NCBI GenBank assembly: GCA_038999725.1
Contig: JAWBWS010000001.1
Coordinates: 64,001 to 128,000, forward strand
DNA: 64,000 nucleotides
Direction of reading: 5' to 3'
From: Candidatus Aenigmatarchaeota archaeon
Lineage (GTDB): Archaea; Aenigmatarchaeota; Aenigmatarchaeia; CG10238-14; SCSR01
Shown here: positions 3,026 through 32,461 of the stretch, in pieces
Numbering within the stretch: position 1 is the stretch's first letter
Layout of the letters: each line of letters begins with the position of its first letter
Notes under the pieces: model-generated
What the model was told of the DNA's origin: nothing
The model's input: the letters and a program-made list of their open reading frames with translations, nothing else
The model's database searches: none
Position numbers and translations under genes: made by a program

Positions 3026-3137
3026 TAGCCCCGGGCAGATTCGAACTGCCGTGTTCAGGTTTCTTTCTTCATCTTTTATCCGAGCTTTAGACTTTAAGTC
3101 CAAAGCCTGACATCCTTGACCGCTAGATGACGGGGCT
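3026..3137 (-). tRNA. tRNA-Gln(UUG), 39-nt intron at 37/38 (3061-3099)
   Basis: AGCCCCG/CGGGGCT acceptor, TCAGG-CTTTGG[intron]A-CCTGA, GGCAG-TTCGAAT-CTGCC. Confidence 0.93.
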
Positions 3138-5801: not shown

Positions 5802-6433
5802 ATTAGCTTCTTTATTTTTTCCATATCCTGAAATCCTGGATAAACCTTCTCATTGATTACCAATGTAGGCACAAAAGTTATTCCATACTTTTTCTTTAAA
5901 GCAGCTATGGCTGGGTTTTCTATATCAAAATCAAAGGCGTAAATTGTAACTTTTTCTGGATATTTTTCATAAATGTGATCCAACACAAATCCCTGATTCT
6001 CGCTTTCTGTGACATTTTCGCGATTTGAATAGAAAAAAATTATAATCGTGACATTTTTACCACATTTTTCTTTCCATGTTTGTATAAGCAAAAGATGATT
6101 AATTAAAAGTAATTCATACTCTTCTTTCAACCTCAACACATACACATCGTTTTTTCCTCTCAAGTTTTCTAGCATTGCAACTTCTCTTCCCAATTCAAGT
6201 TTTTCTTTACCCATTTCTTTCAAAACATCATAATTACAAATCTCTCCCTCCAAAATTTTTGCTTGAAGTATAGCACCACTTATCTTGTTTTTTATTTCAT
6301 CATAGGTCGAAAACATCTCTTTTATCCTAAAATCTGATATATAATAACCCAAGAAAATTCCTAGGAGGAATATGGAAAGTGTTATTATTAAAGCTTCCAC
6401 ATACCTTCCTGTGCTCAATTTTCTTTTTTGCAT
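5798..6433 (-). CDS. Membrane-anchored protein with C-terminal thioredoxin-like fold
   Basis: N-terminal TM; IIFFYS...YGITFVPTLVINEKVYPGF; no CxxC. Confidence 0.6.
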   Translation of the reverse strand: MQKRKLSTGRYVEALIITLSIFLLGIFLGYYISDFRIKEMFSTYDEIKNKISGAILQAKILEGEICNYDVLKEMGKEKLELGREVAMLENLRGKNDVYVLRLKEEYELLLINHLLLIQTWKEKCGKNVTIIIFFYSNRENVTESENQGFVLDHIYEKYPEKVTIYAFDFDIENPAIAALKKKYGITFVPTLVINEKVYPGFQDMEKIKKLI

Positions 6434-12686: not shown

Positions 12687-12770
12687 GCCCCAGTAGCTCA
12701 GCCTGGAAGAGCAACTACCTCGTAAAGTCGAAAAAGTAGTGGGTCGAGGGTTCAAATCCCTCCTGGGGCT
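12687..12770 (+). tRNA. tRNA-Thr(CGU), 10-nt intron at 37/38
   Basis: GCCCCAG/CTGGGGC, ACTAC-CTCGTA[aagtcgaaaa]A-GTAGT, GAGGG-TTCAAAT-CCCTC. Confidence 0.9.
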
Positions 12771-13845: not shown

Positions 13846-14172
13846 ATGATGGAAATCCTGCTTTGGATAGAGCAAAAGAATTTGCAAAAGGTTAAGGATA
13901 TTTTGCTTAAAGATGATGTTGTGTCAAGAGCTAGTATAACTTTCAAAGAAGCAAAAATAATGACTAACAAAGAAGGTTACTATTCTTATATTTCTGGTAC
14001 AGAAGAGCAATGTGTGAGGGCTTTAGAGATAGTAAAACTTAAAAATGAAAAAACAGGTGAAATAGTTGAATTAGCCAGAGAGGTAAAAGAAGAAGAAAGG
14101 AAGGAAGTGATAAATAAAATTAAAGAAGAAGAAAGGAAGGCAATGGAAGGATTTGGGGGTATATTTGGATAA
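13846..14172 (+). CDS. Hypothetical protein
   Basis: GAGGTGA SD; 108 aa ending AMEGFGGIFG. Confidence 0.75.
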   Translation: MMEILLWIEQKNLQKVKDILLKDDVVSRASITFKEAKIMTNKEGYYSYISGTEEQCVRALEIVKLKNEKTGEIVELAREVKEEERKEVINKIKEEERKAMEGFGGIFG

Positions 14173-14987: not shown

Positions 14988-15105
14988 GCAGGGGTAGCCA
15001 AGCGGTTAAAGGCGGCAGGCTCAAGTTTGGTTGAGCTTTGATCTGAGATGAAAGAAGGAACCTGCTGGCTTAGTGCCTTCGTGGGTTCGAATCCCACCCC
15101 CTGCA
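14988..15105 (+). tRNA. tRNA-Leu(CAA), 34-nt intron at 37/38 (15026-15059)
   Basis: GCAGGGG/CCCCTGC, GCAGG-CTCAAG[intron]A-CCTGC, long variable arm GGC-TTAGT-GCC. Confidence 0.93.
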
Positions 15106-20548: not shown

Positions 20549-20630
20549 GGGTCCGTGGTCTAACGGTAGGACGCCAAGAAAGCGGAACCCTCACACGGTG
20601 GAGAATTGGGTTCAACTCCCAACGGACCCA
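20549..20630 (+). tRNA. tRNA-Val(CAC), 11-nt intron at 29/30 (20577-20587)
   Basis: GGGTCCG/CGGACCC, CCA[agaaagcggaa]CC-CTCACAC-GGTGG. Confidence 0.9.
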
Positions 20631-22787: not shown

Positions 22788-23354
22788 CTATGGAGTAAGG
22801 CGCTTAATTTCGTAATAAGTGCAATCATTCTCTCTGTCTACAACCGCCCACACGAAAGTCGCCCTTATATTATGTGCAAGTCTCACTGCCCTCGACATTT
22901 CTGGTAAAGAAAAGGCTGCTTCTTCTGGAACAGCATGAACTACAAATTTTGTGTGTTCATGTGGGGCTTTTGGTCCTCTTACAAGCTTTACTCCTCTTTC
23001 GTAAACTCTGAAATGGGCACCAAATTTAAAACCAGTTTTCACCAGATAGCCTCTCTCCCTCAAGTCGCGATAAACTACAAATTGAGGATGAAATTGGTTT
23101 ACTATTTTTGTTGCAATTTCTAAAAACTCCTTCAAGTCTACATATCTCCTCTTTTCTCCCTCTTTTAAAAAAACTTTCATTCTCCCTTTCTCTAAAAGAT
23201 AGGCTGCCTCCACGAGCTCCAATTCAAGCCTACTGGGATTTTCTTCAGGAACTGGTTTACCAAAACCAGAATCATCATAAAGTCTAACAGCATCCTTATC
23301 CCAAATTATTACTCTGTTTTCCACTAATTCTCCTTCCCAAATTTTCTCTGCCAT
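22788..23354 (-). CDS. endA: tRNA splicing endonuclease
   Basis: LELVEAAYL, VYRDLRERGYLVKTGFKFGAHFRVY, RLAHNIR. Confidence 0.93.
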   Translation of the reverse strand: MAEKIWEGELVENRVIIWDKDAVRLYDDSGFGKPVPEENPSRLELELVEAAYLLEKGRMKVFLKEGEKRRYVDLKEFLEIATKIVNQFHPQFVVYRDLRERGYLVKTGFKFGAHFRVYERGVKLVRGPKAPHEHTKFVVHAVPEEAAFSLPEMSRAVRLAHNIRATFVWAVVDRENDCTYYEIKRLTP

Positions 23355-29234: not shown

Positions 29235-29328
29235 GCCTCGTTAGCTCAGTTGGTAGAGCATCCGAAGAGTTAAAACTCTGGTGAACCTTGTAAGCGGAGG
29301 GTCGTGGGTTCAAATCCCACACGAGGCT
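29235..29328 (+). tRNA. tRNA-Thr(UGU), 21-nt intron at 30/31 (29265-29285)
   Basis: TCCG[aagagttaaaactctggtgaa]C-CTTGTAA-GCGGA; BHB helix CATC/GGTG. Confidence 0.92.
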
Positions 29329-29340
29329 TTCAAGCAAATT

Positions 29341-30375
29341 TTACAATAGATCTATGTCTAGTAATCTCGCCAAGTTTGAGAGATTTAAATTTTTTATTAG
29401 AGAAAAAAGGAATGGTTTATCAGAAATTTTTGATAAAAACCATTTCACCAACAATCCTTTTTTTATGGGCCAGGCAAGTCTTCCTTTCCATTTTTTATCA
29501 TAATTCTCCATCAAAAAATCTCTTGAGAAATTGTTTGTTTCTATAGCTTTTACTATAGCATCTCCAGCAATCTCTGCGCAAATCTTATTGTACACCAGAC
29601 CACCTGCAGAAAAAGGTTTAACCTGACAAGCAGCATCTCCTACAAGCAAAACATTATCAGAAACTGACTCTTCAATTAAACCATATCTTATCACATCACC
29701 TATCCTATTAGAAAAAATTTTTTTATCAAACCTTAATTTTAGGAAATTTTCCAAATAGTTGTTTGGGTTTTTGTTTGTCATTAAACCAACTCTAGCGATT
29801 TTTTCATTTTCGGGAACAACCCAAGCAAAGGAGCCTGGAGCAATTTTGGAACCAAAATGGAGTTCAACACTCCTAGCTTCAAAATTTGACTCCACCTTCA
29901 CTTGTAAAGCAAATAGAAAATTTTTGGGCTGGTTTATTCCAGCTTTTTTGGCAACAGTTGAATTTGGGCCATCTGCACCTACTAGAACCTTACATTTAAA
30001 TTTTCCCTTGTTAGTAAAAATTGTGTTGCCTTTGAAATCTAAAAATCTTGTTGATGTTTTAATTTCAGCTCCAGCTTTTTCAGCCCTTCTTGCAAGCCAT
30101 AAATCATATTTTCTCCTATCTAAAACAAACATTCTTTCTCTTGAGTTAATTTCAAAAAATTTATCTCCAGAGAAAAATCTTGCTTTATCAATTTTGTTTA
30201 AAATCATATCTTTTGGAATTTTACCTATCCTTTTACTAACCAAGCCTGTGCATTGAACAGGCTCTCCAATTTTTGAGTGCTCTTCTAATATTAAGACTGT
30301 GTACCCTTTTCTGGCAACATTCTCACCTGTGATACAACCAGCAGGGCCTGCGCCAACAATAATACAATCGAACAA
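29341..30375 (-). CDS. Geranylgeranyl reductase family FAD oxidoreductase
   Basis: IVGAGPAG, GEPVQCTG, GADGPNS, FAWVVP, LVGDAACQVKPFSAGG. Confidence 0.9.
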   Translation of the reverse strand: MFDCIIVGAGPAGCITGENVARKGYTVLILEEHSKIGEPVQCTGLVSKRIGKIPKDMILNKIDKARFFSGDKFFEINSRERMFVLDRRKYDLWLARRAEKAGAEIKTSTRFLDFKGNTIFTNKGKFKCKVLVGADGPNSTVAKKAGINQPKNFLFALQVKVESNFEARSVELHFGSKIAPGSFAWVVPENEKIARVGLMTNKNPNNYLENFLKLRFDKKIFSNRIGDVIRYGLIEESVSDNVLLVGDAACQVKPFSAGGLVYNKICAEIAGDAIVKAIETNNFSRDFLMENYDKKWKGRLAWPIKKGLLVKWFLSKISDKPFLFSLIKNLNLSNLARLLDIDLL

Positions 30376-30520
30376 ATCAATCCCCTAAACAAATATAATA
30401 TCCAAAAATTAAAATCCATCTAGAAGATCTTGGCATAACGAAACATTAGAATAAAAGATGATTGGAAACATTCACTAAAATAATAGTTGATTAATTTTAC
30501 TCTGTTCAATAATTCTCATC

Positions 30521-31266
30521 TTACCTACCAAAATTCCTTTGTATAGAGTTATACCATTTAATTGCCTTAATCAAATCTTTTTTGGAGAAATCTGGCCAAA
30601 GCTTTTTGGTAACATAAATTTCTGCATAAGATGCTTGTATCAACATGAAGTTTGAAAGTCTGGAAAAGCCCCCAGTCCTTATCACAAGGTCAAGAGGAGC
30701 AGGAACAAGCAAATTAGCTTCTATGTCTTTTTCTGTTACTTCTACTTTACCAATTTTTATCGCTTTTTCTACAATTTTTTTTATCGCTTGAGTTAATTCA
30801 AATTTGCTTCCGTAGGCTATCATTATGTTTAAAACCCTTTCCTGATATTTTGCGGTATTTTGCATTATTTTCCCCATAAGCTTAACGAGCTTTGGTGGTA
30901 ATTTTTCAAGGTCGCCAATAAACCTAACTTTGACTTGATATTTATCCAAAAATCCCCCTTCCTTCTTTTTCCCCCTCTCCCACTTTTTCAAATAATTGTA
31001 GAAAATCTTGAAAATTTCTTCCAATTCCCTTTTTGGTCTATTCAAGTTTTCTGTAGATAAAACATATGCCGAAACTTGTGGTATTCCTAACTCTAGACAC
31101 CAGTTCAAAAACTCTTCAAACTTTTTTGTGCTTGTGAGAGTTTATCCTCTCAACAATTTGCACCATATTTATGTCCTTCCCAAGGTTGTAAACCATGAAG
31201 TCTTGCCCATCTTCTGTTTCCATCCAAAATTATTCCTAGATGATTTGGGAGTGTCAACTCGTTCAT
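30521..31266 (-). CDS. uppS: cis-prenyltransferase UppS; join of exons 31266-31158 and 31125-30521 (237 aa)
   Basis: Exon 1 PNHLGIILDGNRRWA...GHKYGA with GGAGGTG SD; exon 2 YVLSTENLNR, DLVIRTGGFSRLSNF, QASYAE, LWPDF, RNFGR. Confidence 0.9.
31126..31157 (-). other. Predicted 32-nt BHB-type intron in uppS mRNA
   Basis: GUGC-AA|A-UUGU(U)GAGAG-GAUAAA-CUCUC-ACAA-GCAC-AA|A; removal restores GAKKFEEF in frame. Confidence 0.82.
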
Positions 31267-31335
31267 CGATACACCTCCATTTTTTCATAAATTTTAAATA
31301 ATATAAATATTTTTAAAAACAAAAAAGTTTGAAAT

Positions 31336-31439
31336 GGGGTCGTCGTCTAACCAGGTAGGACAGCAGGCTCCAGGTTCAATGGAGCTCTGACAAAAGATGA
31401 AGAAACCTGTATGTGAGGGTTCAAATCCCTCCGACCCCA
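31336..31439 (+). tRNA. tRNA-Trp(CCA), 31-nt intron at 37/38 (31374-31404)
   Basis: GGGGTCG/CGACCCC, GCAGG-CTCCAG[intron]A-CCTGT, GAGGG-TTCAAAT-CCCTC. Confidence 0.93.
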
Positions 31440-31492: not shown

Positions 31493-32461
31493 ATGTCAAT
31501 AGATGTGATTGGAGGGGGACCAGCTGGTTCTGCTGCTTCGATTTTCTTAGCTAAAAGAGGATTTGATGATATAAGGCTATATGAAAAATCTCCTAAATTA
31601 AGAAAACCATGCGGTGGTGGTTTAACTTGGAGAGTTTTTGAAAGATATGGCTATCTCTTAGAGGGTTTGAAAACAAATCCAATCAAAACAATTATTGTTG
31701 ATCTTGAGAATACTATGGTGAAATTTGAGTTCAAAAAAGCGGTGTTAAAAATAGTAGATCGCCTAAGACTCGACAAACATTTAAGAAAAATTGCCAAGAG
31801 CTTTGGTGTTAAAATAATTAAAAAAATGTTGAACCAAAAGAATTGAACAGTAAACTTGTGATTGATGCTAGAGGATTTGATTCAGAACAAGATTTTTCAA
31901 TCGCAAAGGTTGCCATTTGTAAAATAAAGAATTCTGTCGCTACTTTTGTCTTTAGGGAAAAAACTCATAAGTAGAGGTTACTTTTGGATTTTTCCAATAA
32001 ATAGAAAATTAGCTAACATTGGTTGTGCTGGAACTAGAAATGGTCTTAAAACCACCTTAGATAAAGCTTTTGAATGGTTTCTTGAGGAAACTGGTGCTAA
32101 ACCCTTAGTCATCATGAAGTATCCTGTGACTATGTACAATAAAATCAGCAATTTGATTTACAGAGATGGAGATAAAATTGTGGTTAAAGTTGGGGAGAGG
32201 GCTGGTCTTGTTAACCCGCTGACCGGAGAGGGAATTTATCATGCGATAAGAAGTTCAGAAATATTGAGTGAATGTATAGGGGACGATATTTTTTCATACC
32301 AGAAAAAGGTTGAGGATGAATTTAGAAAAGAACTCACGATTTCCAAATTCTTGGTCGGTTCTTTTCCAATAATACCAAATTCTCTAAAAATTTTTTTATT
32401 AAAACACACCGTGAAAATTATGTTCCCGTCTACTAAAATCATTGAAGAGTCTAGAAATTAA
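31493..32461 (+). pseudogene. Second GGR-like FAD oxidoreductase broken by two homopolymer frameshifts
   Basis: IGGGPAG/KPCGGG in ORF1; VIDARG in a second frame; GYFWIFP and VGERAGLVNPLTGEGI in ORF2; shifts at A7 (31820-31826) and A6 (31958-31963). Confidence 0.75.

Follow-up and report, generated by a model that had tools for sequence, protein, structure and literature searches.

A prenyltransferase gene in two pieces

The window analysed here is a 64,000-nt stretch of the genome of an Aenigmatarchaeota (DPANN) archaeon, an assembly of 729,769 bases (about 730 kb) that is 93% complete. We refer to this genome as G000; other G-numbers denote genomes of its relatives, L-numbers denote loci or metagenome contigs, and X-numbers denote sequencing runs. 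On the minus strand of the window (all features below lie on this strand, in window coordinates), the cis-prenyltransferase gene uppS is split into two pieces that are read in different frames. The upstream piece is a 38-codon open reading frame (ORF) that starts at ATG 31266, ends at a TGA at 31152–31150 and encodes the catalytic N terminus of the enzyme. A Shine–Dalgarno-like GGAGGTG, read from the sequence at 31272–31278, lies 5 nt upstream of its start codon. The downstream piece, an ORF of 195 amino acids at 31108–30521, encodes the remainder of the protein.

The original prediction had described the annotated ORF as a UppS that lacks its catalytic N terminus, with the missing part running from ATG 31266, behind GGAGGTG, into an in-frame TGA. 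This arrangement is plain in the sequence and agrees with the profile matches. The Pfam family Prenyltransf (PF01255) is matched by exon 1 over positions 1–34 and by exon 2 over positions 24–219 of 219, so the whole profile is covered; the 195-amino-acid ORF of exon 2, taken alone, matches positions 31–219 with 181.5 bits (E = 2e-53). Exon 1 (31158–31266) extends from the ATG through the second A of the 5′ bulge described below and includes the catalytic N-terminal region with its DGNRRWA motif; exon 2 (30521–31125) includes the stop codon at 30521–30523. When the 32 nt between them (31157 to 31126) are deleted by script, the exons form an open frame of 711 nt, or 237 codons, which is the full-length enzyme that the proposed cut after the second nucleotide of each bulge had been expected to give. 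In an alignment with the intact orthologue of the closest relative, G002, the spliced protein is free of gaps at the junction, and exon 1 has 89% amino-acid identity over 36 codons.

A profile search of the whole 93%-complete genome found no second uppS; the two pieces are its sole Prenyltransf matches. Near uppS, at 31493–32461, lie GGR-like ORFs that are broken by frameshifts.

A relaxed BHB motif at the interruption

The 32-nt insert (31126–31157) has the layout of a BHB mini-intron of the HBh′ type, and is made up of the third A of the 5′ bulge, a stem–loop, the tetranucleotide GCAC and the first two A of the 3′ bulge. The 5′ strand of the central helix, GUGC (31160–31163), is exonic and falls in the Gly-Ala codons of exon 1; it pairs with the intronic GCAC at 31131–31128. 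Two AAA bulges (31159–31157 and 31127–31125) lie on opposite strands with this 4-bp helix between them. Behind the helix is the inner stem–loop (31132–31156), in which UUGU/ACAA and GAGAG/CUCUC form 9 bp with one bulged U. The core of a BHB motif, two 3-nt bulges on opposite strands spaced by 4 bp, is therefore present in G000, together with the inner helix h′.

The original prediction had read this helix, the two bulges and the inner stem directly from the sequence. The minimum-free-energy structure given by RNAfold for 81 nt spanning the insert (−17.3 kcal/mol) contains the 4-bp helix, the 5′ AAA bulge and the inner stem, although the folding energy by itself is unremarkable (z = −1.8). The outer exon–exon helix h next to the 3′ bulge, already suspected to be weak, has 0 contiguous pairs in G000. 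Because of this weak outer helix, the motif belongs to the relaxed HBh′ kind and not to the strict hBHBh′ kind; the relaxed form is described in the available text of PMC5829648. An outer helix shifted by 3 nt seemed plausible from three sequences, but with five sequences only 16 of 20 cells are paired, and it is not claimed here.

Motifs with this geometry (a 4-bp helix, 3-nt bulges and an inner stem of at least 4 bp) are numerous in a scan of the G000 genome, with 61,437 among about 1.59 × 10^8 position pairs, which corresponds to about 4 × 10^-4 per fixed pair of ends. The ends of the insert in uppS are set independently by homology, and the same cut rule fits 17 further inserts in relatives.

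The insert is real and the gene is maintained

Three sequencing runs from two studies (X1, X3 and X5) carry the insert, and every run in which the sequence occurs is a hot-spring metagenome. A 4,973-nt contig from X1, which may be the source sample, spans 30400–31362 without a gap. The same interval is spanned by a 2,826-nt contig from a different sample, X3, that is gap-free at the insert, and X5, which belongs to a different study, has a 175-nt contig that spans 31058–31232, again gap-free and with a single mismatch. None of the contigs of those metagenome runs joins the exons without the 32 nt. Its recovery from three runs in two studies shows that the insert is not an artefact, which the original prediction had listed among the outcomes that would overturn it.

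Decay of this copy beside an intact uppS elsewhere was another such outcome. The gene is the only uppS in G000, and both of its exons are under strong purifying selection: dN/dS between G000 and the intact gene of G002 is 0.069 (0.052 in exon 1 and 0.072 in exon 2, with dS of about 1), and the value between two intact genes, those of G002 and G007, is 0.061. Between lineages that have the intron at this same position, dN/dS at saturated dS is 0.09 (G000 and G004), 0.10 (G000 and G140) and 0.17 (G004 and G140). Beyond the inserts themselves, there are no further stop codons or frameshifts in the spliced genes of G000, G004, G140, G021 and G022. Strong purifying selection on an interrupted gene means that the interruption must be removed or bypassed during expression. 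Judged by its sequence, uppS is an essential-looking single-copy gene, and is not dead.

Mini-introns at three sites in uppS

A first sample of 40 relatives contained 31 with a match and returned 30 uppS loci, 24 of them uninterrupted and 6 interrupted. This comparison of orthologues, which the original prediction had proposed, revealed presence and absence at exactly the codon concerned, hereafter site b, between the Ala and Lys codons that follow GH. Site b is occupied by 32 nt in G000, by 29 nt in G001 and G004 (same genus) and by 52 nt in G140 (another genus). A motif pattern scan of metagenome contigs added L135 and L166 (30 nt each) and L149 (29 nt), giving a total of four genomes and three metagenome contigs from seven separate assemblies. 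That scan returned 49 loci, only 3 of which are in uppS; one 52-nt match with 22 copies is an unrelated conserved sequence.

The structure at site b is conserved with compensatory changes. Across the five distinct sequences that form the covariation set, 20 of 20 cells of the central helix and 100% of the cells of the inner stem are paired, and five of the nine inner-stem pairs are compensatory. When the partners were slid by 1–3 columns, pairing was 31–54%, and the observed covariation score was reached by 0 of 500 shuffles. The AAA at both bulges and the bulged U of the inner stem are kept in all five sequences.

The survey was extended to 370 genomes of the phylum, 315 of which have a uppS match. 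It covered the best 150 of 360 matches, and those with a truncated N terminus or internal stops were followed up. Two further sites, which the original prediction had not mentioned, came to light. Site a is the Asn codon of DGNRRW, and is occupied in 11 genomes from four families (G001, G004, G021, G022, G038, G140, G127, G125, G099, G051 and G071) by inserts of 13–33 nt. Site c, just before PDG, is occupied in G264, G267 and G055. The inserts at sites a and c are likewise BHB mini-introns of 13–33 nt, and all three sites fall within the first 40 codons of uppS. Among the best 150 of 360 matches, at least 15 of the 315 uppS-bearing genomes, in five GTDB families, have one or two uppS mini-introns.

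At site a, 96.5% of the cells are paired over ten distinct sequences, versus 16–44% when the partners are slid, and there are four compensatory pairs; here too, the observed score was reached by 0 of 500 shuffles. One covarying pair at site a is formed by the synonymous third base of an exonic Asp codon and an intron base, and occurs as C-G six times, U-A three times and U-G once. The spacing of bulges and helix seen at site b is also found at both other sites, where the stem sequences are unrelated. Insert lengths span all three classes modulo 3, and the in-frame inserts contain stop codons. A cut placed two bases into each 3-nt bulge brings back DGNRRW or PDG every time, and this rule holds for 18 inserts of 13–52 nt. 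The version in G071, which is 13 nt long, is without an inner stem and has an A-G mismatch in the central helix, may not be spliceable.

A search of the phylum with the site-a pattern gave 41 matches in 38 of the 370 genomes, versus about 20 for the reversed pattern. Ten of the 41 are the uppS intron and the other 31 look like chance.

Splicing machinery of the host

The sole RNA-splicing endonuclease gene of G000 encodes EndA (22788–23354, minus strand), a protein of 188 amino acids with a single catalytic unit and the presumed cutting enzyme; it is the one PF01974 match in the genome. EndA of G000 is a single-subunit, alpha4-like enzyme with a full-length match to the homotetrameric enzyme of M. 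jannaschii (1a79; E = 1e-28). Compared with 1a79, it is longer by six residues immediately in front of the catalytic His, a place at which the ARMAN-2 enzyme (4fz2) is also longer. In the available text of PMC5829648, the loops L1 and L2 that broaden the substrate range of EndA lie near the catalytic His and L3 lies in the C-terminal region, away from the six residues. By alignment their position matches that of L1/L2, and they may have the same broadening role. The same text reports that DPANN alpha4-type EndA proteins with inserts co-occur with many disrupted tRNA genes.

The gene for RtcB is also present; like the EndA gene it is uninterrupted, as are metK and cbf5 of G000. The window further contains an archaeal SRP RNA and six tRNA genes of 82–118 nt, all of which exceed the length of an intron-less tRNA. 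Aragorn predicts introns in most tRNA genes of G000, and its anticodon calls are unreliable for such genes.

Taking these observations together, we consider it highly likely that 31126–31157 is a genuine BHB mini-intron in the uppS pre-mRNA that is spliced by EndA and RtcB. The uppS transcript would fold so that the GUGC/GCAC helix carries one AAA bulge on each strand, with the 9-bp inner stem behind it, and the single EndA would cleave both bulges behind their second base. RtcB would then join the uppS exons, and probably also circularise the released 32-mer. Only the spliced mRNA would yield the 237-amino-acid enzyme, and the unspliced mRNA would yield a 38-amino-acid peptide.

A linked LAGLIDADG homing-endonuclease gene

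A LAGLIDADG-type ORF lies immediately upstream of uppS, in the same orientation, at 11 of the 18 intron-bearing loci. Conversely, all 11 LAGLIDADG-bearing uppS loci have an intron, and none of the 24 uninterrupted uppS loci of the first sample has a LAGLIDADG gene. We attach no P value to this link because kin are not independent; G001 and G004, for example, are near-identical.

The ORFs fall into at least two families. Family 1 comprises those of G004 (Pfam LAGLIDADG_3, 55.5 bits), G140 (44.3 bits) and G267 (52.2 bits), together with those of G001, L166 and L149, which are 99.5%, 69% and 62% identical, respectively, to the G004 ORF. Family 2 comprises the ORF of G038 (29.8 bits) and homologues that are 50–55% identical in G127, G051 and G099. 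A further LAGLIDADG ORF lies upstream of uppS in G071 (46.4 bits). Site b is accompanied by the family 1 endonuclease in five of its seven loci.

The intron-bearing loci without an upstream LAGLIDADG gene are those of G000, G021, G022, G125, G264, G055 and L135; the gene upstream of uppS is instead a peptidase M48 in G264 and an HTH protein in G055. In G000, there is no LAGLIDADG_3 (PF14528) match anywhere and no tblastn hit. Starting about 45 nt before the start codon and continuing downstream, the two metagenome contigs L135 (without the endonuclease gene) and L166 (with it) share 91% identity; they diverge only farther upstream, where L166 has the endonuclease gene and L135 resembles G000, with a tRNA gene.

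This association with a homing-endonuclease gene, which the original prediction had not mentioned, favours a selfish, mobile origin of the introns over a regulatory one. Because G000 is without the endonuclease gene, this part of the argument rests on its relatives, which as kin are not independent samples. We give about an even chance to the proposal that the uppS mini-intron originated in a mobile cassette with a free-standing LAGLIDADG endonuclease. According to this proposal, the mini-introns at the three uppS sites travel with the free-standing LAGLIDADG gene directly upstream, and the intron probably interrupts the DNA target of the endonuclease, so that both could spread together by gene conversion. 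G000 would have lost the endonuclease gene, leaving an orphan intron that is kept harmless by the tRNA-splicing machinery.

A more general form of the hypothesis is that DPANN BHB mini-introns are one half of a two-part selfish element, in which the endonuclease gene adjoins a conserved gene and an ORF-less intron of 13–52 nt masks the target. The 5′ end of uppS would then be a hotspot, with three sites and at least two endonuclease lineages, and orphan introns would be remnants of decay. We regard this generalization as equally poised between right and wrong. If it is true, it would provide a route by which protein-spliced archaeal introns enter protein-coding genes, and would give them a life cycle that resembles the one of group I introns.

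Alternative explanations

One rival reading is that uppS is a pseudogene or is only now being lost, and that the hairpin-like 32 nt are a scar, for instance of break repair or of a small mobile element, that stays in the RNA. DPANN archaea often rely on their hosts for lipids, 55 of the 370 genomes of the phylum have no uppS match, the GGR-like ORFs nearby are broken, and the outer helix of the motif is weak. However, low dN/dS in both exons (also between intron-sharing lineages, where dS is saturated), the five spliced genes that are otherwise free of stops and frameshifts, and the covarying stems of inserts that obey one cut rule all speak against an unspliced insertion, to which we assign a small chance. 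Translation offers another way around the break. In gene 60 of phage T4, ribosomes bypass a gap that contains a stable hairpin and has a stop codon soon after the break. The interruption of uppS has both features, so a hop over 32 nt could make splicing unneeded; but uppS lacks a matched pair of take-off and landing codons by which the frame could be regained, and GCA, the one codon that is repeated, leads into a frame with a stop after seven codons. The inserts at the other sites, moreover, can be as short as 13–16 nt and have only the BHB geometry in common. Bypass is accordingly very improbable.

A reading closer to our own accepts removal from the RNA but attributes it to another nuclease and ligase, or to a self-cleaving activity, in place of EndA and RtcB. 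The motif is relaxed, and the alpha4-like type of EndA is thought to be strict, as far as the available text of PMC5829648 goes. Yet the features that are conserved at all three sites, among unrelated stem sequences, are exactly the geometry that EndA measures, no Rfam ribozyme family matches within the window, and the six-residue insert by the catalytic His of EndA sits at what appears to be the position of L1/L2 (PMC5829648). This leaves only a slim chance for a different enzyme. Finally, the genome is metagenome-assembled and may itself derive from two of the runs, so the 32 nt might be absent from the DNA of the organism and reflect an error of assembly or sequencing. The gap-free X3 and X5 contigs, the consistent lack of a joint that skips the insert, and the seven separate assemblies with a site-b intron reduce the probability of an artefact to almost nothing. 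Splicing by EndA and RtcB thus remains the reading that we favour.

Relation to known systems

The only archaeal protein-coding gene with a BHB intron that we found in the literature searched is cbf5 of Crenarchaeota, which encodes a pseudouridine synthase and has the intron in its pre-mRNA (PMC2738675, available text; Watanabe 2002, Yoshinari 2006, Yokobori 2009). In the available text of a 2026 review of non-canonical splicing (PMC13149111), ‘cbf5’ occurs 0 times. Like uppS, crenarchaeal cbf5 has a short BHB-type intron in its coding sequence, whose presence among related lineages is patchy, with gain and loss; the cbf5 intron is removed by the tRNA-splicing endonuclease, as that of uppS would be. 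The uppS case adds a different gene, which is the only copy in the cell, from a different superphylum (DPANN Aenigmatarchaeota). It also differs from cbf5 in its three insertion sites within 40 codons, and its splicing is predicted. EndA is a single subunit in G000 versus heteromeric in Crenarchaeota, and a free-standing LAGLIDADG gene is linked to uppS in relatives.

The original prediction knew of no report of a BHB intron in uppS. The literature that we searched, full texts outside subscription journals, contained none, nor any paper with ‘undecaprenyl’ together with intron terms; it also contained no BHB intron in any Aenigmatarchaeota or DPANN protein-coding gene, and no free-standing endonuclease paired with a BHB intron. 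The HBh′-type BHB mini-intron in uppS is real, conserved and very probably spliced, and belongs to a homing-endonuclease-linked family that is undescribed in this literature.

Some LAGLIDADG homing endonucleases, such as I-DmoI and I-PorI, are found within archaeal BHB introns. BHB introns of archaeal rRNA and tRNA genes, some with a LAGLIDADG homing endonuclease inside, are described in the available text of PMC4496867 and PMC2602781, and would have in common with the uppS case the BHB motif, the pathway of EndA plus ligase, the LAGLIDADG family and mobility by homing. Unlike them, the uppS introns are only 13–52 nt long and ORF-less, the host gene encodes a protein, and the endonuclease gene lies outside both intron and host gene, directly upstream.

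This architecture, an ORF-less intron at a conserved coding site with a free-standing endonuclease gene beside it, is the same as that of collaborative (trans) homing in phages, in which an ORF-less group I intron is paired with mobE/I-TevIII in T4 (PMC2790892) or with F-CphI beside psbA in cyanophage (PMC6083498). In those phage cases, as far as the available text describes them, the intron protects the allele that carries it, and intron and endonuclease are co-converted. In contrast to the self-splicing group I introns of phages, the uppS intron would be a protein-spliced BHB intron; its hosts are cellular archaea, and its endonuclease partner is putative. Splicing of HAC1/XBP1 mRNA, in which IRE1 cuts and tRNA ligase, or RtcB in metazoa, joins the exons (PMC13149111, available text), resembles the uppS case in having a short, frame-changing mRNA intron and in combining a protein endonuclease with a tRNA ligase. 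The nuclease and the recognition motif differ, and HAC1/XBP1 splicing is regulated by stress, whereas nothing in uppS indicates regulation.

Because the only copy of uppS is interrupted, the cell would need its tRNA-splicing enzymes to make the lipid carrier of its surface glycans. The invasion of one short stretch of a gene at three positions, with clear covariation, provides a natural series of 13–52-nt substrates with which to define the cutting range of a single-subunit DPANN EndA, and the tight LAGLIDADG link makes the entry of protein-spliced introns into genes, and their movement between genes, directly testable. Gene callers split or truncate genes of this kind, and metabolic reconstructions of DPANN archaea will consequently score them as missing when they are not.

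A search for further mRNA introns in G000

The original prediction had also suggested a genome-wide scan of broken ORFs for BHB motifs. A loose scan of both strands of G000 gave 153,926 motifs, which we combined with an ORF-fusion test. Fusions numbered 6,006 at the predicted cuts versus 6,034–6,393 with the cuts shifted by 1–2 nt, and are thus not in excess; the scan is uninformative because neighbouring genes overwhelm the test. A tblastn comparison of the whole G000 genome with G002 covered 605 of 621 kb and is blind to introns common to both genomes. Of the seven split-alignment candidates that it returned, uppS alone is a protein gene carrying an intron-like insert; the remaining six are tRNA genes or ORFs that are intergenic or antisense. 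One tRNA gene has an insert at different places in G000 and G002.

Inserts in tRNA genes

All six tRNA genes of the window (3026–3137, 12687–12770, 14988–15105, 20549–20630, 29235–29328 and the tRNA-Trp gene at 31336–31439) are 82–118 nt long and therefore carry inserts; the Aragorn anticodon calls are wrong for several of them. Between the tRNA-Trp gene and uppS, which lies downstream of it on the opposite strand, there are 70 nt.

One tRNA gene has a 12-nt insert in the genome of the window (G000:C4, about 13,850–14,150); in its counterpart in the relative G002 (G002:C4, 13,014–13,120) the insert is 11 nt long and sits elsewhere in the gene. This difference suggests turnover of tRNA introns inside a single genus.

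uppS and its neighbours in related genomes

In the relative G071, the uppS insert in the Asn codon of DGNRRW is only 13 nt long (loci L081 and L122, G071:C5), without an inner stem and with an A–G mismatch in the central helix. A LAGLIDADG gene is present upstream of this uppS despite the reduced structure of the insert. Such an insert may mark the lower size limit for splicing, or it may be a dead end.

The relative G125 has a second, partial uppS copy on a different contig from the first (locus L077, G125:C98:2500–3282), with an in-frame TAA past the GH motif. It shows no BHB geometry. The G125 genome is only 56% complete; the copy may belong to a second strain or be a pseudogene.

Downstream of uppS in the relative G004, a 445-amino-acid open reading frame with HTH domains (L006:92–1426, minus strand) occupies the place that a geranylgeranyl reductase gene has in G000 and G021. 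Its weak similarity (25–34% identity) is to family 1 of the LAGLIDADG endonucleases encoded directly upstream of uppS in relatives, so that uppS may be flanked by a second endonuclease gene in a degenerate state.

In the window, a geranylgeranyl-reductase-like gene at 31493–32461 (plus strand; FAD-binding N terminus GGGPAGS) is broken into three open reading frames in frames 2, 1 and 2, and looks like a pseudogene or the product of homopolymer errors rather than a gene split by BHB inserts. The frame switches fall close to A-runs (around 31820–31830 and 31955–31965). An intact paralogue lies at 29341–30375 (minus strand).
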